DNA of 64,000 nucleotides from a virus (Duplodnaviria; Heunggongvirae; Uroviricota; Caudoviricetes). The notes under the pieces are model-generated. The model made no database searches, had not been told where the DNA came from, and worked only from the letters and a program-made list of their open reading frames with translations. A program made the position numbers and the translations under genes. Below, piece after piece: positions 1,782-42,953 of this stretch. The stretch spans positions 158,679-222,678 of the IMG/VR virus record IMGVR_UViG_3300044765_000092. The stretch is one strand, 5' to 3'. Numbering within the stretch: position 1 is the stretch's first letter; each line of letters starts with the position of its first letter.

Positions 1782-2192
1782 CTAGTGGTCTAGTGGAGTA
1801 AGCGTCCAGTCGGTCCATTGACCCTGTTCGTCGTGGATGCGGATCGAGTGGTAGCCGAATAACGTGTGGAATACCCGCTTGGTCACCGGAACTGGAAACG
1901 AATTGTCGAGCACGTACTGGTTGCAGATTACAAGGACGCCGTGTTTGTGCCTACTATCGACCACGACGCTGGCTAACGTGAGTGATGAGGGTGGAAAGCC
2001 GCGGTCGACCAGAGCAGCATACTTGCGAACCGCACAATTGCTGGTCTGTTCGGTGGCCAGCAACTGGAACCACGGCTGGTCCTCATAGTGAAGTGCAGTG
2101 GATGGCAGGTGCTCCGAATTCACCTGTTCGTGGATCTGGTACATGAGGTCCTTCCATGCAACAGGAAGGTCTGTCTGAACTGGCTGCAACAT
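1782..2192 (-). CDS. hypothetical protein
   Basis: ORF 1782..2216. The internal ATG at 2190-2192 (MLQPVQ) is preceded by AGGAGG. Confidence 0.5.
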   Translation of the reverse strand: MLQPVQTDLPVAWKDLMYQIHEQVNSEHLPSTALHYEDQPWFQLLATEQTSNCAVRKYAALVDRGFPPSSLTLASVVVDSRHKHGVLVICNQYVLDNSFPVPVTKRVFHTLFGYHSIRIHDEQGQWTDWTLTPLDH

Positions 2193-2255
2193 ACCGATAC
2201 CTCCTTGGTCCGTCAAGCCTGCTGATACACGATGTACGTGTGACGTGGTCTAAAA

Positions 2256-7390: not shown

Positions 7391-7466
7391 TGGTGGAAAG
7401 TAGTGGGATCGAACCACTGACCACCTCCTTATGAAGGAGGCGCTCTACCGACTGAGCTAACTTTCC
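7391..7466 (-). tRNA. tRNA with CAT anticodon (Met or lysidine-Ile)
   Basis: Hand-folded cloverleaf: GGAAAGT/ACTTTCC acceptor, D-arm GCTC-AGTCGGTA-GAGC, loop TTCATAA, T-arm TTCGATC, CCA encoded. Confidence 0.85.
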
Positions 7467-7470
7467 ACTG

Positions 7471-7546
7471 TGGTGGATCGTGACGGGCTCGAACCGCCGA
7501 CCTACGCCTTGTAAGGGCGCCGCTCTACCAACTGAGCTAACAATCC
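7471..7546 (-). tRNA. tRNA-Val (TAC)
   Basis: Acceptor GGATTGT/ACGATCC, anticodon loop CTTACAA, T-loop TTCGAGC, CCA encoded. Confidence 0.85.
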
Positions 7547-7549
7547 AAA

Positions 7550-7627
7550 TGGTCCGGGTGACAGGGATCGAACCTGCGACCTCATGCTCCCAAAGCACGC
7601 GCGCTACCAGACTGCGCTACACCCGGA
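7550..7627 (-). tRNA. tRNA-Pro (TGG)
   Basis: Acceptor CCGGGTG/CACCCGG, anticodon loop TTTGGGA, T-loop TTCGATC, CCA encoded. Confidence 0.8.
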
Positions 7628-11982: not shown

Positions 11983-13269
11983 TTAGTTTCCCTTGACGCA
12001 GAGCACGGCCTTGAGCGTGTGGACCACTTCGACCAGATCTGCCTGATTGGCCATCACCTGATCGATGTCCTTGTACGCCGATGGGATTTCGTCGAGCACC
12101 GATTCATCCTTGCGGCATTCGACACCTTGGGTCTGGGCCACGAGGTCGTCGACAGTGAACAGGCGCTTGGCCTCTTTCCGTCCGTGACGTCGGCCAGCTC
12201 CATGCGAACAACTGCAATACGACTCCGTATTGCCTTTGCCACGCACGATGTAAGACCGCTGGCCCATGGAACCCGGAATGATCCCCAGGTCGCCGGTGCG
12301 AGCACGGATCGCACCCTTGCGCGTCACCCACACGTTCTGGCCGAAGTGGCTCTCCTGCTCCACGTAGTTGTGGTGGCAGTTGATGGCTTCTTCGGTAGTC
12401 TGGAGATCTGGAAATGTACGCTTGAGCGCCGACAGCACGCGACGCATCATAAGATGCCGGTTGATCCAAGCGTAGTTTTGTGCCCAGGTCACGGCCGTCG
12501 TGTATTCCTTGAATTCCGGCGTGCCTTCCGGAAAGTACGCGAGGTCCTTGTCCGGCAGGTTGATGAACCATTTGGCAGCCAACGTCCGTGCCCGATCGAT
12601 GAACGACGTGCCGATCTTGTTGCCGATGCCACGCGAACCTGAGTGGAGCATCACCCATACGTTATGATTTTCGTCCAGGCACAGCTCGATGAAATGGTTG
12701 CCAGAACCCAGAGTCCCGAGTTGAGCCCAGGCATTGTCCACAGTCGTGTCTCCGACCACTGTCCCGATAAAGCCAAGATCGTCGGTCAGAATACGATTAA
12801 ACTCTCGCCGGGCGTCGACGACAGCTTCCTTGTTCTCGACGATCTCCTGTTCGCGCCGATGTGCACCACCAGGACCCAACGGTATGTCACGCTCGATCTG
12901 GTGGCGAATCGCGGTCAAGCTGTCCGGCAGCTGATCGGCCCGTAGATTGGTGCGAACCGCGTTCATCCCGCAGCCGATATCGACACCGACGGCCGCCGGT
13001 ATGATGGCCTTGACCGTGGGCACAACCGATCCGACGGTTGCACCGATCCCCAGGTGGACGTCAGGCATGAGCGCTACACCATTCGGATGAATGAACGGAA
13101 GCCGGGCGATGTTCTTGGCCTGTTGAAGAGCAGCGTCTTCGATGTCGAGGCCTTTGACCACGCGCTCGATCTCCGCGTCGAGTTCGTGGTTGATGTCCGT
13201 GACCACTTTGGTCGTTTCATTGACCCACGCCTTGATCGGCCGCGCGCCATGTTCGTGAATCACCTTCAT
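11983..13269 (-). CDS. rtcB: RtcB RNA 3'-phosphate/2',3'-cyclic-phosphate ligase
   Basis: MPDVHLGIGATVGSVVPT...AIIPAAVGVDIGCGMNAVRT...GTGNHFIE...HSGSRGIGN...INCHHNY...SCSHGAGR are near-identical to the E. coli RtcB motifs. Confidence 0.9.
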   Translation of the reverse strand: MKVIHEHGARPIKAWVNETTKVVTDINHELDAEIERVVKGLDIEDAALQQAKNIARLPFIHPNGVALMPDVHLGIGATVGSVVPTVKAIIPAAVGVDIGCGMNAVRTNLRADQLPDSLTAIRHQIERDIPLGPGGAHRREQEIVENKEAVVDARREFNRILTDDLGFIGTVVGDTTVDNAWAQLGTLGSGNHFIELCLDENHNVWVMLHSGSRGIGNKIGTSFIDRARTLAAKWFINLPDKDLAYFPEGTPEFKEYTTAVTWAQNYAWINRHLMMRRVLSALKRTFPDLQTTEEAINCHHNYVEQESHFGQNVWVTRKGAIRARTGDLGIIPGSMGQRSYIVRGKGNTESYCSCSHGAGRRHGRKEAKRLFTVDDLVAQTQGVECRKDESVLDEIPSAYKDIDQVMANQADLVEVVHTLKAVLCVKGN

Positions 13270-15300: not shown

Positions 15301-15390
15301 TTTGGCGGAGAGACTGGGAGTCGAACCCAGTGACCACGTTACCGCAGTCTACGGATTAGCAATCCGCTGCCTTACCATCCAGCCCTCTCT
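15301..15390 (-). tRNA. tRNA-Ser (GCT), long variable arm
   Basis: Acceptor GGAGAGA/TCTCTCC, anticodon loop TTGCTAA, 19-nt variable arm, T-loop TTCGACT, CCA encoded. Confidence 0.8.
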
Positions 15391-15396
15391 CCGTTG

Positions 15397-15472
15397 AGTG
15401 GTGCCGCCACGAGGAATCGAACCCCGGACCTACTGCTTACAAGGCAGTTGCTCTACCGACTGAGCTATGACG
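15397..15472 (-). tRNA. tRNA-Thr (TGT)
   Basis: Acceptor GCCGTCA/TGGCGGC, D-arm GCTC-AGTCGGTA-GAGC, anticodon loop CTTGTAA, CCA encoded. Confidence 0.85.
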
Positions 15473-15482
15473 GCGAATTGGT

Positions 15483-15618: not shown

Positions 15619-16206
15619 TCACTCACCGTGACTTTGAAGTGGCGGTGGATCATAATCCGAATCAGCCCATCCGTCTTCGACGTCCTTGACTTCATCGTCT
15701 GATGGCATCGGCTTTGGACACGGCTGCGAGGCCGCACGTAGAGCCTTGACTTCCTGAGCCAGGATATACATGGCGATGGTACCAAGCGAGAAGCAGTCAC
15801 GCACACCTTGGGTGTTGCTCGTCCACTCAGCTATCCTCTCCAGCGCCCAATCCACTGTGTATTCGTTTTCCGGTGCAGATGGGTGTTTCTTCTGTTGCAG
15901 TTGCGCCAGCGAAATGACACTCAGCTGATCGAAGAGCCGTGTGTTCTTACGCGAAAGCTCTTCTAGCTGACCCTGAAGGGTTCTGATCGTACATGCTGCG
16001 CATGGTTGCCCTTGCATCACAGCCTTGTGGTCCTTGCACAAGTTGTTTGCCAGGGAATTGGCCATCAATTGGCTTAGATACTGCAAATGAATCCGGTCAT
16101 CGGCATGAGTGTTCATCAGGTCGTTGATGAACTTATCAACCGCATCCGCGTCGTATACTCTAGCCCCATCTACGAACGATTGCTGAAAACGTCTACTCAG
16201 GTCCAT
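15619..16206 (-). CDS. hypothetical protein
   Basis: 195-aa ORF. Confidence 0.55.
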   Translation of the reverse strand: MDLSRRFQQSFVDGARVYDADAVDKFINDLMNTHADDRIHLQYLSQLMANSLANNLCKDHKAVMQGQPCAACTIRTLQGQLEELSRKNTRLFDQLSVISLAQLQQKKHPSAPENEYTVDWALERIAEWTSNTQGVRDCFSLGTIAMYILAQEVKALRAASQPCPKPMPSDDEVKDVEDGWADSDYDPPPLQSHGE

Positions 16207-16829
16207 TGGTTTGCTAAATATTTGCGGAGCTGGCTCTTGGCCTTGAGATCTGCACGGAGCATGCGTCGTGCCTCGGCTACTACAGCGAGGTTGAACTTGG
16301 CGTCAGCGACGGCCGTGTGCTGTTGTCCTGGGTGTTTGACATCCACACCCAGGAACTTTCTTAGAGTAGACACATCTCGTACGATCTTGTAATTCCAAGG
16401 TGCTTCTAGTCCACAGGACTCAAACAACGAGCCAAGTCGGGCCAGATCGAAGTCAGGATGATTACACCACAGTTCTTCAGCTTTGCTGAAGGCCTGAACG
16501 AGCGAATAATGGAGTTCTTCGACAGTTGAGGTGCCAGACGCGTAACCTAAGAATCGTTTGTTCCCGTGAGTACGTATCTGGAAGTCCAGCGTATTCTTGG
16601 TGTAAGAGCGGCCGAGCGCCAACTGCTCGGCTACCGACATGTAGTGCGTTTCCTCAAAGTCGATGCCGACGCTGAAGTCATCCGGGCTGATGTACTGACC
16701 GTATACACCCACTTCGTGGATAATGCAGTCGTACCTAAGAGAAAGGGTCTCGATATCGAGACCCACGATCTTGATTTCTTCCATGTTCTTGGACGTTGAG
16801 TGGAGCGGGAGTGCCGAGTCAAACGGCAC
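16197..16829 (-). CDS. DEDDh-family 3'-5' exonuclease (RNase T / DnaQ-like)
   Basis: Exo I IVGLDIET, Exo II NHPDFDLARL, Exo III HTAVADA. The start may be the internal MEEIKIV at 16784. Confidence 0.65.
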   Translation of the reverse strand: MPFDSALPLHSTSKNMEEIKIVGLDIETLSLRYDCIIHEVGVYGQYISPDDFSVGIDFEETHYMSVAEQLALGRSYTKNTLDFQIRTHGNKRFLGYASGTSTVEELHYSLVQAFSKAEELWCNHPDFDLARLGSLFESCGLEAPWNYKIVRDVSTLRKFLGVDVKHPGQQHTAVADAKFNLAVVAEARRMLRADLKAKSQLRKYLANQWT

Positions 16830-17510: not shown

Positions 17511-18296
17511 TCAGCCTCGCACATTGGTCACGGTGCCGAACTGTTCCATGATCAGGTCGGCGATAGCGTTGCCGATCTTGGAGTCGATGGCCTCGATGTC
17601 GTTGGCGCGATTGCGTGCCTGATGGCAGGCCACGATCATCTCGTCCAGCAGCTCCAGAACCTTGGCCTTCTCGGCGGCCGAAACGGCGCCAGACCAGATC
17701 TTCGTGGTGAAGGTGCCGACCACCACATCCTTGCTGGCTTCCTTGACCTGCGCCGGATGCTTGTCGGTCGCCGGAGCCAAGACCACCGGAGTCATGACCT
17801 TCTCGGTCTTGCTCACATGGGTCTCGTCGGTGACCCACGCACCTTCGATGTTGTTGGAGTCCGGTTGCCACGACCTGGAGGCATCGAGCGTCGGCATAGT
17901 GGACAGCAACGCCCTGAGCTTGCCAAGGCGATTCTCCAGGCCCATCAGCTCGTCGACCGGGACACTGGTCGCCACAGTGTTGCCGCGTACCACCAGATCG
18001 GCCTTGGCGTTCTGGTTGCTGGCGTTCTTGCTGGCCATCACGTTCTCGGCCTTGGCCCAGAACTGCAGAAAGTAGTCGACGGTCAGCGGCACAGTGGTGC
18101 TCAGCTCTTTCTTGACCATCGCAGCCTTTTCCAGAGAATCGTTCTCCGGGCTCTCGGCCAGCATCTTGAGCGTCTTGGTCTCACCGCGGAAGTAGCTCTC
18201 CGCTTTGGAGAACTTGGTCCGGGTGTCGTCGGCCATCTGATTGGCGGTAGCAACCGCAGTCTTTTCAGCGGCCAGGAGTTCGTAGAGCTTTCCCAT
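17511..18296 (-). CDS. hypothetical protein
   Basis: ORF 17511..18443. The N-terminal 49 aa are Arg-rich junk. The probable start MGKLYELL is at 18294-18296. Confidence 0.55.
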   Translation of the reverse strand: MGKLYELLAAEKTAVATANQMADDTRTKFSKAESYFRGETKTLKMLAESPENDSLEKAAMVKKELSTTVPLTVDYFLQFWAKAENVMASKNASNQNAKADLVVRGNTVATSVPVDELMGLENRLGKLRALLSTMPTLDASRSWQPDSNNIEGAWVTDETHVSKTEKVMTPVVLAPATDKHPAQVKEASKDVVVGTFTTKIWSGAVSAAEKAKVLELLDEMIVACHQARNRANDIEAIDSKIGNAIADLIMEQFGTVTNVRG

Positions 18297-19078
18297 GGTG
18301 ATTCTTTCTTGACGTTGATGATCACAGCAATAGCGGATCCAACCTCTGCCGCGTTTGGCTGGATCCTGGTCACAAAACCCTCGCTCCGGGCTGCGATGAG
18401 CGTTACGTAGAGTAGCTCCTGGGCGGACTCGGTGCCTATCCACCTGTCAAAACCTGGGTCTCGAATCCGAGTGTAGGCCACGGATCGTCAAAGCGGGAGT
18501 GTGAGACTGGCTGAGAGGCAAATTCATCTCACTACTACAGGCGACGGACTTCAAGGCGAGCTTACCCACGCTATCGCTCGCACCGGCACCGACGATCAAC
18601 CGTAGCAGTCGTCAGTGGTTTCTTGGGTGGGGCGATGGCCGGAGTCACGATCCCTACTAACCGAATTGCCGCTATCACGCGTATCGCGTGCAATCCAGAT
18701 TCGGCACCCCACAGATGGCGAGACCGCACGGCACTCGGCAACAGGAGCGACCTATCACCAAATGACAGTCCTCTAGGCGACCGTGATTTGCACTGACATC
18801 GCTTCTCTTGCGGTCGAGGATGGAACCCGCGCTAAGTCTCATTGAAGAAAGCTCTACAGCCGTATTAAGCGAGTGCGCTGCGGTAGCAACGCACCCGAAG
18901 GGAGGAGGATGAGAGATCAACAAGCCTCTTGGCAGGGACTTGGTCAAAAGAGCAATGGCTGTAGAGCGTAAAGGTGTAAGGTGCGACCCTTCGCAGGTAG
19001 GTCGCACGCCCCTCGGTTAACTGCGTGTCACGAACCCCTCTTGCGCAGGGCCGTAGGACAGATCAGGGGAATTCAGCG

Positions 19079-23604: not shown

Positions 23605-23681
23605 TGGTAGGCCGGGTTGGGTTCGAACCAACGACCAAAGGATTATGAGTCCTCTGCTCTGACCAACTGAGCTACCGGCCC
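23605..23681 (-). tRNA. tRNA with CAT anticodon (second copy; Met or Ile2)
   Basis: Acceptor GGGCCGG/CCGGCCT, D-arm GCTC-AGTTGGTCA-GAGC, anticodon loop CTCATAA, T-loop TTCGAAC, CCA encoded. Confidence 0.8.
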
Positions 23682-31538: not shown

Positions 31539-32456
31539 TTACTGTCGCGGAGTCGGACTGCCGTATTGCTTGCCCACGTCGAGAAACGGGACTGGAGCAC
31601 CTGCGTAGATGGCAGTCGGAAGCTGACCGTTCCAGTTCTTGGCTTTCTGCATCTCGACCTCGATGCGGCGCAGTTCCAGCACATCGCGATTCTGCGCCAG
31701 TGCCGCGTTCTGGATCTTGAGTGCTTCTGCCTCGGCTTCTGCCTTCTTGGTGATGGCGTATGCAGCACCGTCGGCTTGAGCTTTGGTGGCGTTGGCTTCG
31801 GCCTCTGCGGTCACGACCTTGGCACGCTGCTGAGCCTCAACGGTCTTGACCTGGTTTTCGGCCGCGAGTCGCAACTGCTCTTGCGTGACCTTCTGGTTGA
31901 TGGCCTGCATGTAGCTGTCGCTGAAGCTAAAGTTGCGCATGTCGATGTTGATGACATGCGCGCCGTAGATGCCGAGCTTGGTCTGCAGTGCTGAATTGAT
32001 GTCGCTCGACACCCGCGCTCGTTGGGCAATCAGGTCAGGTGCTGTGTACTTGGCGGTCACTGCCTTGAACACTTCCTGAGTAGCGGTCTGCACGTAGCTC
32101 GAGAGGTCACCGTTGTGCGTGTACTTTTCGTAGACCTCGGCCACGCGGTCAGGCGAGATGTTGTAGCGGACGGTCATGCTCACCTTCACGGGTTGCTGGT
32201 CTGAGGTCGAGCCCTCCGCGTCGTTGATATCGGCCTGTTCGGACCGAATGCTAAACAGCGTCAGGTTCTTCCACGGAGGCAGAACCACAAGGCCCTCGGG
32301 TTCGATCCCTTTGATGGCCCCGAATTGGGTGATCACGCCACGCGCGCCAGTGGGCACCGATCGGAACGGCCACAGAGACACGATGGTCACCAGCAAGATG
32401 ATGCCGGCGATCACCGCGCCGACAGCCATCCCAAACATCTTTTCTTTACGATCCAT
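31539..32456 (-). CDS. SPFH/band-7 (prohibitin/HflC-like) membrane protein
   Basis: N-terminal transmembrane helix, band-7 core (...VITQFGAI...), then a long Ala/Glu/Gln coiled coil. Confidence 0.7.
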   Translation of the reverse strand: MDRKEKMFGMAVGAVIAGIILLVTIVSLWPFRSVPTGARGVITQFGAIKGIEPEGLVVLPPWKNLTLFSIRSEQADINDAEGSTSDQQPVKVSMTVRYNISPDRVAEVYEKYTHNGDLSSYVQTATQEVFKAVTAKYTAPDLIAQRARVSSDINSALQTKLGIYGAHVINIDMRNFSFSDSYMQAINQKVTQEQLRLAAENQVKTVEAQQRAKVVTAEAEANATKAQADGAAYAITKKAEAEAEALKIQNAALAQNRDVLELRRIEVEMQKAKNWNGQLPTAIYAGAPVPFLDVGKQYGSPTPRQ

Positions 32457-38948: not shown

Positions 38949-38983
38949 TCGACTCTCCTTCTGGCTGACTGATAAACGTGTGT

Positions 38984-39005
38984 GCTAGCGCGCACGCGCG
39001 CTAGC
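38984..39005 (-). other. perfect 10-bp GC hairpin GCTAGCGCGC-acg-GCGCGCTAGC, 4 nt 3' of motif copy 8 and 40 nt upstream of the next start
   Basis: Seen directly in the sequence. Confidence 0.5.
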
Positions 39006-39009
39006 AACA

Positions 39010-39019
39010 TCATTTACAG
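39010..39019 (-). promoter_or_regulatory. TCATTTACAG motif, copy 8
   Basis: Directly 3' of the stop of CDS 39014..40084. Confidence 0.45.
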
Positions 39020-40084
39020 TATGAACTTGTCGGCAGGCAGCACAGGCGGGCCGCCGAGTTTGCGTGTCCACAGCTGAAGCGCGATCTCAAGCATTGTCGA
39101 TCGGCTTTGATCAATACCCTTCTCGATTTCGTCGTCCTTAAGTTCAATGGAGAAGGCCTCTTCGTAGGCCATTACCAATTCGACGGTATCAAGTGAATCT
39201 GCCCCAAGGTCGCGAACTGTCTTGTTCCAGCCTTGGGCTACAAAGTCAGCCTGTTGAAGACCGAGTTGATCGCAGGTCGTTCGAATAAACTTTTCTTTGA
39301 AGGCGCTGAGACTGATGGTCCAGACCTGGTCCCCAACCTTGTAGCTGGCAGTTTGCAACCAGAAGGCTAATCCCTCGTTGGGGACCACTTTAATCTCGGT
39401 TGTCTTTGCTGTTTTTGCCGCCTTTGGCTTATAGACCGTGTCCTCATCGTCATCATCGTCATCATCGGGATCAGCTGACTTCTTGGGCGGCGTCGACCGC
39501 GGCGCAACACCCCGAGGCGGTCTGTACTTGTTGGTTGGCGCTTCGGTTCGTTCGATAAAAGGATTGTCGTGTACCAGTGGTTCGCCGCCCCACACCCGTT
39601 CGATCTGCTTGTTGATCCAGCGAATTGCCTCTTGTGGATGCCAGTTGCCAAGAACGTGGTTGCAGATGCCGAGAACGTACCATTTGTAGTACGAGCTCGG
39701 AACAAAGCCGACTAGGCTAGGACCGGCGGTGTGCAAGATCCCGTAACCGTCGAGTGCGCAATAGGATCGGCCCTGAACACCGATCCTGAGGTCCAAACCG
39801 CCCTGACCAGCCAACGGCCCCTGAACGACTTGACCCAAGTGAGTGACGATCGGCACTTCGGTCCTCGACCTAGGCCACTGCCGGTCGGCCGGTCGCCCAT
39901 GATCGTAGGCGATGAGGGCAACCATGTCATCGTATCGAAGAGACAGGGGGTTGGCATCCGTCGGTGGTTCGAGCAGCAGGAACATTGGGTTCTTTGCCGC
40001 CTGGTCATAGACACTAGTCCCGGTCCCTACCCTCGTCCGGTCTTGGATGGGCAACAGGTATTGGAAGTTGTTCATTTCTTTCAC
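39014..40084 (-). CDS. fusion protein: unknown N-terminal domain, poly-Asp linker and a C-terminal acyl carrier protein (phosphopantetheine-binding) domain
   Basis: C-terminal [30 protein letters not shown] is nearly identical to E. coli ACP helix II ([30 protein letters not shown]), including the DSL serine. Confidence 0.7.
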   Translation of the reverse strand: [356 protein letters not shown]

Positions 40085-40115
40085 TCCGTTTGTTGGTGTG
40101 GTAAGCGAGTAACAC

Positions 40116-40319
40116 CTAGATAGATCTGTCGGTTTGTCGCTCCAGTTCGAGCACCCGTTTCAACGCCTGTACCTCTCGGCTTCGAAAGAAGTCTTGAACC
40201 AGGACGCCGGTCATAAATCCAAGGACAAGGGCCAGCCACGGTGCATCCCCGTAGGCTTGGCCCAGGGCCATGATGGCGCATGCCACTATCCACAGCAACT
40301 CTCGGTTAGTTCTGTCCAT
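40116..40319 (-). CDS. small membrane protein
   Basis: ORF 40116..40382 with the ATG (MDRTNREL) at 40317-40319. Confidence 0.4.
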   Translation of the reverse strand: MDRTNRELLWIVACAIMALGQAYGDAPWLALVLGFMTGVLVQDFFRSREVQALKRVLELERQTDRSI

Positions 40320-40632
40320 CGGTGTTCTCCTGTTCGTCGGTCTGGGTCTCGGCCCAACGTTTGTGGGCTTTGATGGTGGCAACGCCTATAAATGGAGTGA
40401 TGGCCGTCACTACAACCTGAATGGTTACCCATCCCCATTTGCCATCGACAAGCAGTACAAGCCACCATACAACCAATGCACAGGCGGCTAGCCCACCTAG
40501 CATCACTACTGTGATAAGGCCTCCGTCTGAGGCCCAGAATTTCTGTACTACGTTACACAGCTCTTCGAGCCATACTCTAGTGAATGACATCTTCTCGTTC
40601 GTTGGTTCACCTGTGGCTGGTTGTTTGTTCAT
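40306..40632 (-). CDS. membrane protein
   Basis: 108 aa with two transmembrane segments. Confidence 0.45.
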   Translation of the reverse strand: MNKQPATGEPTNEKMSFTRVWLEELCNVVQKFWASDGGLITVVMLGGLAACALVVWWLVLLVDGKWGWVTIQVVVTAITPFIGVATIKAHKRWAETQTDEQENTDGQN

Positions 40633-40653
40633 TGTCGGTCCTTTTCTTTGTCG

Positions 40654-41007
40654 TCAATCATGCTGGTCATCTTTCGCCCGTTCGTCTTTCCATTGATTGA
40701 TCGCTCTACTGGTTATTGGCCATAGAATCGGTGTCAGTACCACTATCATCATTTCTGTTACAGCCCATCCGTAGGCTTTGACCGATACCAGGAACGTGCC
40801 TAAGAATAGCAGGCCAGTGAACGCACATGCGCCTGCTATCATGCAGAGCAGTTCACCAAATTCTGACCACCATTCTCTAATGGCCTTTAGGCAGACCGAC
40901 CACCAGATTTGAACAAAGGTACGGTCGCTGTTCGGCCGCCGCTCTTTTCCTTTATGTTCTACCCTGTCTGAATCCGAATCCGGATCTGTTATCGTTTGTT
41001 CGTTCAT
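40654..41007 (-). CDS. membrane protein
   Basis: ORF 40654..41055. The ATG at 41005-41007 (MNEQTITD) is preceded by AGGAAAGG. First gene of the leftward arm. Confidence 0.5.
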   Translation of the reverse strand: MNEQTITDPDSDSDRVEHKGKERRPNSDRTFVQIWWSVCLKAIREWWSEFGELLCMIAGACAFTGLLFLGTFLVSVKAYGWAVTEMMIVVLTPILWPITSRAINQWKDERAKDDQHD

Positions 41008-41058
41008 TGTCTGGCCTTTCCTTTGTGTGTGCAGAGCACTCGTGTCTAACAACACCTG

Positions 41059-41068: not shown

Positions 41069-41530
41069 GTTAAAACCTGTCTGTGTGGTTCACCGTTTTG
41101 ACCCTCTATCCAATGACTCCCCTGGATCTAGCTGATCCACTGGATAGAGGGTTTTTGTGGTCAACCTTCTTTTGGCTCCCATTTGCCCACCCAATTCGCC
41201 ATCTCGTGTATTTGATCTATTTTCGGAGACCCCCTGTTTTTCTCTGTGTCGAATGTTGATGGTGTTTGTCGCGGTCGAGTGTAGTGCGTGTGTGGAACAC
41301 ATTTGTGCTCGTTTTGACGGGTTCATCGTATTTCGTCTGTTTTTCTAGATGGGGCTGTGGTTTTGCCCTGTTTTGATGATCAATTCTGCTTGTTTCTTTA
41401 TTTTTGAGGGTTTGACCAATTTTGATCTAGTTGGGTATCATACCCTAGCTGCCATCGTGTCGTTTTGCTACCCCTCTACTGTACATCTATTACTATTAAG
41501 TGATAACGTGATGCTGCAAAAAGAGGCAAC
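41069..41530. promoter_or_regulatory. divergent intergenic switch region between the leftward and rightward arms; AT-richer; candidate divergent promoters and/or replication origin
   Basis: No ORF. A 12-bp inverted repeat ACCCTCTATCCA...TGGATAGAGGGT at 41101-41152 is followed by TTTTTGTGG. CTGTTTTTCT occurs twice (41238 and 41339), with related CTGTTTTG copies. Confidence 0.45.
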
Positions 41531-41863
41531 TTGACGGATTACACGACATTCACCAGTCAAACTGGAAGATCGGGTTCAACCCCGCAAAACAGGGTTCAGG
41601 TTGTAAATGCGCGGGTCATTAACTTTGGCTCAGAGCATCCTATGTCCAATCTTGCTGCTGTCGCTACCGATATTGCTGGTTGTATCATGGTCGTCAGTGT
41701 GGGTATCTCCTTACTGACGTTTTTGGCTGCAATGGTGATCTGCCAACCCGAACCGTATTCCACTTACGAAAAGGTGGTGGACGTGATACTGCGTATCGTC
41801 ACCTGCACAGGTGTTCTGAGCGCAACCTTTTTCTACTTGATGCTCGGTACTTCTGGAGGCTGA
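41531..41863 (+). CDS. membrane protein
   Basis: 110-aa ORF with hydrophobic segments. The start may be the internal MSNLAAV. Confidence 0.4.
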   Translation: MTDYTTFTSQTGRSGSTPQNRVQVVNARVINFGSEHPMSNLAAVATDIAGCIMVVSVGISLLTFLAAMVICQPEPYSTYEKVVDVILRIVTCTGVLSATFFYLMLGTSGG

Positions 41864-41864
41864 A

Positions 41865-42953
41865 ATGGAACAGTACAAACGACACGATCGGTTGGATGTG
41901 GTGTGTGCTATCCAACACGGATCTCACCTGTACGGAACAGCAAACGAACATTCGGACTACGACTTCAAATGCGTGTATCTGCCGTCGTTGCGGCAAACCA
42001 CGTTCAGCGTACGATCTCCGGGAGTGCGCCGCATCCGCTACGACAAAGACGGAAACACTGTTGGCGACCGCGAGGCGTTGAACGCAGGTGGTTCGGAGAG
42101 CGAGCATTTCACTGTCACTGATTTCGTAGCCGGCTTCTGCGCCGGACAGGCATGGGCGTTCGAGTTCTTGTTTGCAGTTCTGCAGAACAGGATGATCGAT
42201 CTACGGCACGACAGTATCGGGACTAACAGTCGCCGCGAGACTTGCAGTCAACTGTTCTACGAACTGTGTCATGTCCTGGCTGACAATCCGCATCGCAATG
42301 TGCAACCGATGCTCGGGTTTGCGGTTAAGCAAACGATGGACTACGTGCATCGTGGTGAACGGCTTGCGGTCGCACGTCGAGTTGCCGATGCGGTATACGG
42401 AGCGTGGGTTATTTGTGGGCTGGAGCCGAAATTACGGCTCGACTCAATGCTACCCGACCAGCAACTGACTGTCTTGGACCACATTGCGAATACGGCTCGC
42501 GTGGAAATCGGGCGCTCAACCAATGGTGGTCGCGAATTTCGCACACTGATTGTCAATGGTCGGGAGTATTTGGAAACTATGCCGTTGCGCGAGTTCCATC
42601 GGTCGATCAGCGCGTTGATCGAATCATACGGTGCTCGATCCATACGGGCTGAACAGGACGGTGTTGACTGGAAGTCGTTGAGTCACGCTGTTCGTGTGTA
42701 TGATCAGATTGTGGAGTACCTGGACCGCGGAACAATGGTGTTCCCACGCCCGAATCCGGTTCATTTGCTTGCCATCAAGAACGGGGAGCTGCCACTGGAG
42801 TTCGTCAAGCAGCGGATCACGTCCCTGGAACTTTGTGTCAATTCAATGCTCATGGACTCCAAGTTGCCAGACCCCACACCTGAGTGGATCCAGCATGTGT
42901 TTGATCAGTGCTGGCCTCTGGTCCGCACCATGTATCAGGTGACCGACCAATGA
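41865..42953 (+). CDS. Pol-beta-superfamily nucleotidyltransferase-fold protein
   Basis: N-terminal HGSHLYGTANEHSDYDF matches the GS-x9-SDxD NTase signature. Strong GGAGG RBS. 362 aa. Confidence 0.5.
   Translation: MEQYKRHDRLDVVCAIQHGSHLYGTANEHSDYDFKCVYLPSLRQTTFSVRSPGVRRIRYDKDGNTVGDREALNAGGSESEHFTVTDFVAGFCAGQAWAFEFLFAVLQNRMIDLRHDSIGTNSRRETCSQLFYELCHVLADNPHRNVQPMLGFAVKQTMDYVHRGERLAVARRVADAVYGAWVICGLEPKLRLDSMLPDQQLTVLDHIANTARVEIGRSTNGGREFRTLIVNGREYLETMPLREFHRSISALIESYGARSIRAEQDGVDWKSLSHAVRVYDQIVEYLDRGTMVFPRPNPVHLLAIKNGELPLEFVKQRITSLELCVNSMLMDSKLPDPTPEWIQHVFDQCWPLVRTMYQVTDQ

Follow-up and report, generated by a model that had tools for sequence, protein, structure and literature searches.

A jumbo-phage protein joining an orphan domain to an acyl carrier protein domain conserved mainly around helix II

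Introduction

What use could a bacteriophage have for an acyl carrier protein (ACP) domain that is joined to a domain without recognizable relatives? This question is raised by a gene on the minus strand of a 64,000-nucleotide stretch of viral DNA (positions 158,679 to 222,678 of the IMG/VR record IMGVR_UViG_3300044765_000092; the whole stretch is hereafter called the window), which belongs to a 238 kb contig of a contractile-tailed jumbo phage. The gene (39014..40075) encodes a protein of 353 residues, on which residue numbers are counted unless stated otherwise, and its C-terminal part resembles AcpP of Escherichia coli. In the bacterial cell, AcpP serves the synthesis of fatty acids, phospholipids, lipid A, lipoate and biotin. 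A first-pass annotation, made from the letters of the DNA, described the product as a bona fide ACP domain preceded by a poly-Asp linker and by an unrecognized domain of roughly 190 residues, and suggested that the phage either taps the acyl transfer reactions of its host or uses the domain as a decoy.

ACPs encoded by phages have been described as rare and unexplained (PMC7760394; PMC13573597), and in the literature searched we found no demonstrated function for any of them. The rarity also assumed by the annotation is reflected in GenBank, where the ACP domain of the window protein, used as query, matched 148 of 50,697 phage records at E ≤ 1. Nevertheless, phage ACPs and ACP fusions are not unprecedented: hundreds of phages have a gene annotated as ACP, helix II peptides of this type occur in at least 383 IMG/VR stretches, and an ACP was detected by liquid chromatography-tandem mass spectrometry in virions of Erwinia Eneladusvirus jumbo phages (PMC7760394). 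The protein described here is, then, not categorically new; what is new is its singleton fusion partner, together with an unusually sharp pattern of conservation confined to helix II.

Results and Discussion

The C-terminal domain and its mosaic conservation

The ACP domain (residues 256-341; 39053..39310) was recognized in profile and sequence searches alike. The Pfam family PF00550 (PP-binding) was matched with 26.9 bits against a gathering score of 20.8 (E 6e-6; residues 267-320 of a 356-residue version of the product), PHROG 5934 ('acyl carrier protein') with an E value of 1.3e-11, and 99 ACP sequences of the PDB were retrieved at E values up to 1, the best (approximately 1e-9) being AcpP chains, with ACP subunits of mitochondrial complex I also among the matches. 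The domain carries the motif DLGADSLD, in which Ser294 (TCA codon, 39194..39196) aligns with Ser36 of E. coli AcpP, the residue that bears the phosphopantetheine; the attachment serine that the first-pass annotation had seen in the DSL triplet is thus in place. The 30-residue peptide on which that annotation relied is found exactly in the open reading frame (ORF) 39014..40084 of the minus strand, and its near-identity to AcpP was confirmed, as 22 of its 30 residues are shared with AcpP residues 32-61 and the first 14, corresponding to helix II, are all identical. More generally, AcpP residues 31-50, including Asp35-Ser36-Leu37 and an acidic helix II, are virtually identical in the two proteins. 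The Pfam search of the C-terminus, a check that the annotation had itself proposed, placed it in the PP-binding family, and on its sequence we assign it to the phosphopantetheine-binding (ACP) superfamily.

The words 'bona fide' hold for this superfamily but not for AcpP proper. The closest database relatives are ordinary bacterial AcpPs of 77-81 residues, with approximately 50-55% identity over about 64 residues, and the score of the domain lies below the cut-off of every NCBIfam AcpP equivalog model (TIGR00517, NF002149 and NF002151; 51.8 against 106, 47.2 against 70.45 and 47.4 against 92 bits). These models align only over positions 6-62 of about 78, leaving helix IV unmatched, and judged by them the domain is not an AcpP equivalog. 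It also differs from AcpP in being the C-terminal domain of a 353-residue protein, whereas AcpP is a stand-alone protein of about 78 residues.

The origin of these low scores became visible in a column-by-column comparison with 48 AcpP homologues. Residues 289-311 (39143..39211) correspond to residues 31-53 of E. coli AcpP and run from the last part of loop I through helix II into loop II; of the 23 conserved columns in this block, 22 agree with the family consensus. Outside this block, substitutions affect approximately 20 of the 26 conserved columns (F28T, I54L, P55K, A59I and Y71L among them), bulky residues occupy pocket positions (V7F, L46Y, A59I), and, relative to AcpP, two residues are inserted in loop I and six before helix IV. 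When 79 viral ACPs were compared over the conserved columns, a set retrieved with helix II peptides and hence biased towards intact blocks, the identity of the window domain was 0.96 within the block and 0.28 outside it, the latter against a viral median of 0.48 and a value of 0.93 for E. coli AcpP; just two of the 79 were equally low outside the block, both with weaker helix II blocks. Helix II is the docking surface for AcpS and for the client enzymes of AcpP. The alignments establish, at the level of sequence, that the domain keeps a complete recognition surface of the kind used by AcpS and the clients, together with the serine, while the acyl-cradling core and helix IV are degraded.

An AlphaFold2 model of the domain, built from an alignment of 49 sequences, had a mean predicted local distance difference test (pLDDT) score of 66 and placed four helices at the positions expected of an ACP (pLDDT 70-88), with a beta-hairpin at about residues 242-255 directly before helix I (strands at model residues 27-32 and 35-40; pLDDT 53-68). 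The top Foldseek matches in the PDB were ACPs (7pdi, 2lol and 7auf), although weak ones (E 0.02-1.4; TM-score 0.5-0.6 by target length). The predicted structure agrees with the sequence evidence and adds no independent proof to it. A second ACP was not found in the window.

An orphan domain on a charged tether

The fusion itself is genuine. An identical sequence over 21 kb is present in a Logan assembly contig of run SRR35359593, and the N-terminal part (residues 1-175; 39551..40075) codes in frame: its codon-usage log-odds is 0.16, the best of the six frames and inside the range of the other genes of the window (mean 0.31, standard deviation 0.12), while off-frames average -0.44. Because this second copy comes from another contig and the N-terminal part is coding, the fusion is not an assembly artefact. 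The only other known copy being 100% identical, there is no sequence variation in the protein.

In keeping with the first-pass annotation, which recognized no motif in it, the N-terminal domain was matched in no search, though it is somewhat shorter than the proposed 190 residues, extending over about 175 before a Pro/Lys/Arg-rich segment begins. It is aromatic-rich, with an isoelectric point of 6.3, and inspection of its sequence revealed neither a signal peptide nor a transmembrane segment. When 5.8 billion clusters were searched by word index, the protein matched itself alone; as regards true matches, the same was found in an exhaustive phmmer search of 1.84 billion representative proteins, the three extra matches being internally repetitive pseudo-proteins that aligned in 4-9 stretches and are not relatives. 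A phmmer search of the PDB at E ≤ 10 gave one chance match; residues 1-222 matched nothing among the PHROGs, and PADLOC gave no match; the whole protein returned PP-binding alone from Pfam at E ≤ 1 and no relatives from an IMG/VR scan. Moreover, no paralogue of the domain was found in the window, and no homologue beside the ACP genes in 0.5 Mb of other loci. A single-sequence AlphaFold2 model of the full protein was unusable (mean pLDDT 34).

Several identities for this domain were considered and rejected. Its assignment as a phosphopantetheinyl transferase (PPTase), acyltransferase or thioesterase found no profile match (ACPS/Sfp, HlyC, LRAT/NlpC-P60, LipB, LuxI and hot-dog families), and apparent likenesses to motifs of AcpS (GxD ... 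KEA), to the 'NCEHF' of LRAT and to intein blocks were dropped, as no profile supported them.

The N-terminal domain is followed by a charged, low-complexity linker (residues 176-222; 39410..39550), in which Pro/Arg/Lys-rich flanks surround an acidic run (residues 202-212; 39440-39472). Its grand average of hydropathy is -1.85, and its pLDDT is below 50 in both AlphaFold2 models. The poly-Asp linker of the first-pass annotation corresponds to this acidic run, but does not adjoin the ACP domain, from which it is separated by about 45 further residues that include the predicted beta-hairpin. The pre-ACP segment (residues 223-255; 39311..39409), which contains the hairpin, is covered by no homologue. 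Altogether 80 residues lie between the N-terminal domain and helix I of the ACP, about 47 of them disordered and charged, and past helix IV the protein ends in a tail of 12 residues (342-353; 39017..39052) that lies outside all ACP homologues.

ACP-like modules in other phages

To place this architecture among those of other phages, 80 sampled viral ACP loci were surveyed. The serine lay a median of 37 residues from the first ATG, which corresponds to the stand-alone form; extensions of more than 100 residues were N-terminal in 9 of the 80 loci and C-terminal in 5, and approximately 12% of the loci encode fusions. When eight of the extended proteins were compared with Pfam, PP-binding was the only family recognized, apart from a helix-turn-helix (HTH) in one of them. 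Three ACP fusions share one partner domain, namely RIIB (PF26926, Phage_T4_rIIB), and among the 120 best matches to the RIIB family nine carry an ACP domain, seven of which keep the DSL serine. RIIB-ACP fusions occur in uncultured phages in both domain orders (loci L039, L077 and L008; L091:6001-7236; the proteins listed with them are P0127, P0128, P0131, P0149, P0162, P0211, P0225, P0238 and P0239), and P0128 comes after a 770-residue gene of rIIA size. We found no paper on these fusions. Further viral ACP fusions have partners outside Pfam (L058 and L059, on IMG/VR contigs of about 250 kb, as well as L031, L029, L042 and L081), one N-terminal partner recalling MazG by eye (EEVGELAE). Such cases suggest that ACP domains occur in large phages in a wide and uncharted range of architectures.

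The window protein shares with the RIIB-ACP fusions (P0128, L039, L077 and L008, and rIIB of phage ZPAH1, described below) the combination of a phage-specific domain, a charged or acidic linker and an AcpP-like domain, as well as the DSL serine, which is intact in most of them. It differs from them in its partner, as the N-terminal domain is not RIIB-like. Four motifs in the same order (LIAYK, CSxGLH, VPxDYN and YxVLG) had suggested a likeness by eye, which we judge to be pareidolia: hmmsearch with RIIB profiles of 3 and 120 sequences gave no match even at E ≤ 1000, Smith-Waterman z scores against shuffled sequences were -0.5 to 0.15, and hhalign returned a probability of 0.5%.

In two cases the attachment serine is missing from an ACP-like module. 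The rIIB protein of the cultured, T4-like Aeromonas phage ZPAH1 (L084:2474-3718, i.e., MW272540.1 74624-75868) has at its start an ACP-like segment (residues 5-61), matched to an ACP profile with an E value of 4e-13, whose attachment serine has given way to Glu (GLDELD); behind it come an HTH-like segment and the RIIB domain. In the Ackermannviridae, a protein annotated as 'acyl carrier protein' (271 records) carries Asp or Glu where the serine would be in each of the four genera examined, and matches the ACP profile only at positions 33-60, that is, over helix II and loop II (examples are L083:3842-4153, which is orf142 of CBA120, and L085, L086 and L087 from Dickeya, Klebsiella and Salmonella phages). 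Because its attachment serine is replaced, this protein cannot be phosphopantetheinylated or act as a carrier, and it is probably mis-named. Like the window protein, in which the block is near-perfect, it retains the helix II/loop II block; unlike it, it is a stand-alone protein of about 103-113 residues without the serine, whereas the window protein keeps the serine within a large fusion. Since the block is kept in these phages without the serine, at least some phage ACP-like modules must act independently of phosphopantetheine, through protein-protein recognition alone.

A further comparison is offered by phage BCSR5, whose tail sheath is 42% identical to that of the window phage. Its ACP (QRE00220.1, 162 residues) likewise has the ACP domain at the C-terminus, behind a charged linker and an N-terminal extension, and Pro55, conserved in 98% of cases otherwise, is absent from both ACP domains. 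Nevertheless, the BCSR5 linker is made of Lys and Glu, its extension is only about 85 residues long and unrelated in sequence, and its ACP passes the TIGR00517 cut-off (77.1 against 70.45 bits), unlike that of the window. The two ACP domains are 44% identical, no closer than either is to bacterial AcpPs. A search for synteny of the window with BCSR5 and with a contig carrying a RIIB-ACP fusion found that the ACP domain alone matches, and for this reason the SPFH and Metallophos genes that they share are not evidence of a conserved module.

Docking module or acyl carrier

We tentatively favour, with less than even confidence, a reading in which the ACP domain is a helix II docking or adaptor module that brings an orphan effector to host enzymes that are clients of AcpP. 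The gene product would be a two-module host-interaction protein, with the AcpP-derived C-terminal module as its docking device. Host AcpS would recognize this module, and Ser294 would then probably be phosphopantetheinylated; host enzymes that bind helix II (FabD and other Fab enzymes, Lpx enzymes, Pls enzymes) would recognize it as well. The N-terminal domain, on its disordered charged tether, would add a second, phage-specific contact or activity, so that the whole protein could attach to a single such target in the host with high avidity, thereby inhibiting, redirecting or relocalizing it. The outcome would be a takeover of host lipid or envelope metabolism, and not fatty-acid synthesis by the phage. 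Recognition by AcpS or the clients, any binding or inhibition, and the part given to the N-terminal domain are what we infer here from the features of the protein.

This reading is preferred because the helix II block is near-perfect (22/23) while approximately 28% of the conserved columns outside it match, a pattern extreme among the 79 viral ACPs and accompanied by failure at the AcpP equivalog cut-offs. It is preferred also because other phages (Ackermannviridae, ZPAH1 rIIB) retain the block without the serine; because the fused partners of phage ACPs (RIIB, an HTH protein and unknowns) hold no acyl-processing enzyme recognized by Pfam; and because no acyl enzyme was detected in the window and the gene stands outside the structural module. 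Regarding the former of these last two points, a Pfam scan of essentially every ORF of the window gave no match to a fatty-acid synthase (FAS), PPTase, acyltransferase or thioesterase family, and no association with a fab-type gene cluster (fabD-fabG-acpP-fabF) was found within it. The suggestion of the first-pass annotation that the phage taps host fatty-acid, lipid A or polyketide-type transfer consequently receives no support from gene context, as neither an acyltransferase nor a synthase or PPTase was detected among the ORFs of the window. Its alternative of a decoy is indirectly favoured by the serine-less ACP-like proteins of other phages, but the window protein has kept its serine.

Several considerations weigh against a docking module. 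The serine and the full DLGADSLD motif appear in the sequence as a true carrier needs them, and as a pure mimic does not. With a single sequence, selection on its residues is not measurable. Any competitor would need unusually high affinity, given that few cytoplasmic proteins are as abundant as AcpP. In addition, helix II is the best conserved part of every ACP, which makes the mosaic partly generic, and the viral proteins with which it was compared were fetched by helix II peptides. The N-terminal domain is an orphan, and the window covers 64 kb of a 238 kb genome, so partner enzymes may be encoded in the other 174 kb.

The retained serine leads directly to the best surviving alternative, namely that the domain is a true carrier acting in cis as a swinging arm, which we consider possible but somewhat unlikely. 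Once host AcpS had primed Ser294, an acyl or malonyl cargo would be loaded onto it by another enzyme of the host, which could be FabD, a transacylase or an acyl-ACP synthetase. The N-terminal domain would be a novel enzyme using that cargo, perhaps a ligase, thioesterase or acyltransferase acting on a molecule of phage or host (a lipid, a protein or an envelope component, for example). The intact DSL serine and AcpS-recognition helix agree with this proposal, as does the arrangement of a domain, a long disordered linker and a carrier domain. The same layout is known from the carrier domains of multienzyme complexes and type I synthases, and the window protein indeed resembles type I FAS, polyketide synthases and other swinging-arm multienzymes in that a small phosphopantetheine-carrier domain is attached to a partner domain by a long flexible linker; it departs from them in lacking a recognizable catalytic domain and in having an ACP sequence of the type II (AcpP) kind. 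The bulky pocket residues (V7F, L46Y, A59I) would fit a carrier that does not sequester its cargo, and seven of the nine RIIB-ACP fusions keep the serine. Nevertheless, the N-terminal domain matches no enzyme family in Pfam, PHROG, the PDB or the exhaustive phmmer search, no loading or offloading enzyme is encoded in the window, the ACP domain lies under the AcpP equivalog thresholds, and a single sequence allows no catalytic motif to be defined.

It is improbable, in our view, that the fusion is incidental, meaning that the disappearance of a stop codon or intergenic region joined a stand-alone phage ACP to a rapidly evolving ORFan upstream of it, with the N-terminus adding nothing specific. 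The singleton status of the N-terminal domain and its codon score, on the low side of the window genes, would accord with such an event, and the different, unrelated extension of the BCSR5 ACP, together with the diversity of viral partners, suggests frequent shuffling. However, the 255 codons upstream of the ACP domain are open and coding in the best of six frames, the charged linker resembles a tether more than translated intergenic DNA, and the recurrence of fusions among the sampled viral loci argues that they are selected.

Even more doubtful is a purely structural or scaffolding role, with the ACP-like domain as an interaction module of a phage assembly or membrane complex that has no link to host fatty-acid synthesis. 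The mitochondrial ACP is used in this way as a subunit of complex I, and ACP subunits of that complex were among the PDB matches. RIIB, to which other phage ACPs are fused, is described as membrane-associated in T4; one record annotates it as 'lysis inhibitor rIIA-rIIB membrane-associated'. Two small transmembrane-like paralogues are encoded directly upstream of the gene, and the presence of ACP in Erwinia Eneladusvirus virions (PMC7760394) is consistent with this role too. On the other hand, approximately 16 kb separate the gene from the module of tail sheath and tube, which lies on the opposite strand, and a near-perfect AcpP helix II is better explained by host enzyme partners. Finally, a mis-assembly or frameshift that fused two genes at the GAT/GAC-rich repeat can be set aside as extremely improbable, since, despite the low-complexity (GAT/GAC)n stretch at the junction (39440-39472), the Logan and JGI contigs are identical over 21 kb and the same frame, with coding-type codon usage, runs on both sides of the repeat.

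The gene and its flanking signals

The longest ORF at the locus (39014-40084) has 356 codons from a GTG at 40084. A Shine-Dalgarno-like GGAG (40084..40087, minus strand) overlaps this GTG and lies 8 nt upstream of an ATG at 40075, from which the coding sequence comprises 353 codons and a TAA stop (39014-39016). The true start is most likely this ATG, which is preferred because the gene call on the Logan contig uses the same 353-residue product; the JGI gene call is shorter (323 residues, P0001). A stem-loop over and after the stop codon (38968..39020, minus strand; -29.1 kcal/mol, z = -3.25) has as its core a 22-nt GC-rich near-perfect palindrome at 38984-39005 (GCTAGCGCGCGTGCGCGCTAGC) that occurs once in the window. 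It may be a terminator or an RNA-stabilizing hairpin, although a scan for consensus terminators did not call it. Upstream, a non-coding gap of 230 nt on the basis of ORF map and codon scores (40076..40305) could hold a promoter, but a scan of it found no sigma-70 consensus.

Surrounded by small uncharacterized genes, the gene is approximately the fourth in a unit that is transcribed leftward from a divergent region of higher AT content near 41.3 kb. Two small paralogous proteins are encoded in tandem directly upstream of it (40306-40632 and 40654-41055, minus strand; 108 and about 117-133 residues). They have hydrophobic, transmembrane-like stretches and no family match, and share a 31-nt stretch, 87% identical, that comprises ribosome-binding site and start codon (40621-40651 and 40996-41026). 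Downstream are two small unknown proteins, a deoxyribonucleotidase-like HAD protein and an AAA_28/thymidylate-kinase-like protein; an IMG/VR scan with this kinase found no relatives. Across the divergent region lies an RlaP-like nucleotidyltransferase, which was discarded as a synteny anchor, being widespread in T4-like phages and hence uninformative. The switch between minus-strand genes to the left and plus-strand genes to the right falls at about 41090-41540 (local GC 0.49). This region also holds an imperfect inverted repeat of 26 nt (41101-41152) and, on the plus strand, the best sigma-70-like site (41412-41441).

The phage and other features of the window

The tail sheath of the phage is 42-47% identical to those of BcepSauron, BcepSaruman and BCSR5 (Burkholderia), Motura (Achromobacter) and phiRSL1 (Ralstonia). 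By this protein, the phage is classed as a phiRSL1/BcepSauron/BCSR5-like jumbo myovirus, and from the same relatives its host is probably a member of the Burkholderiales. A DUF7873 protein (17511-18443, minus strand, 225 bits), a conserved jumbo-phage gene without assigned function, is 50% identical to a hypothetical protein of phiRSL1 and 45% identical to proteins encoded by jumbo phages of Klebsiella and Serratia with genomes of about 300 kb.

The window also encodes six tRNAs (two for Met and one each for Val, Pro, Ser and Thr; 7391-7626, 15303-15474 and 23605-23681), a full-length RtcB RNA ligase (439 bits), an Rv2179c-like 3'-5' exoribonuclease and the RlaP-like nucleotidyltransferase, the further coordinates of this toolkit being 11983-13269, 16197-16829 and 41865-42953. 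The combination suggests a defence against host systems that cleave tRNA. An SPFH/Band_7 (prohibitin-like) membrane-scaffold protein is encoded at 31539-32456 (minus strand, 94 bits); a Band_7 gene also adjoins the RIIB-ACP fusion in L091, and SPFH proteins and ACP have both been reported in virions of Erwinia jumbo phages, but those loci are not related to the one in the window by sequence homology. A weak BTLCP (Peptidase_C93) match at 1782-2216 (minus strand) scored 25.8 bits, just below the cut-off of 27.

Conclusions

The present evidence reveals no mechanism for the window protein, and if its fusion were incidental, it would merely be one more phage ACP without an assigned role. It nevertheless offers a test case for whether the ACP modules of phages are carriers of cargo or imitators of the host carrier. 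If imitation proved true, it would constitute a route by which a phage interferes with an essential, highly connected hub of its host, and the N-terminal domain would be a new effector fold. The RIIB-ACP fusions and the serine-less ACP mimics, both found outside the window, are the more general and surprising observations; the recurrence of ACP fusions, including those with RIIB, and the serine-less proteins suggest that the phenomenon is general and linked to rII function, and the RIIB-ACP fusions may help to reveal what the rII genes do biochemically. In the broadest form of this idea, which we hold to be rather unlikely, the universal ACP docking helix would be a portable 'address tag', devoid of the attachment serine in some lineages, that delivers varied phage effectors (the orphan domain, RIIB and others) to AcpS or to the AcpP-client enzymes of the host, and the window protein would belong to an undescribed class of host-takeover proteins aimed at lipid and envelope biosynthesis. 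Were that the case, the RIIB-ACP fusions would provide the first biochemical handle on the targets of the rII proteins in the cell.

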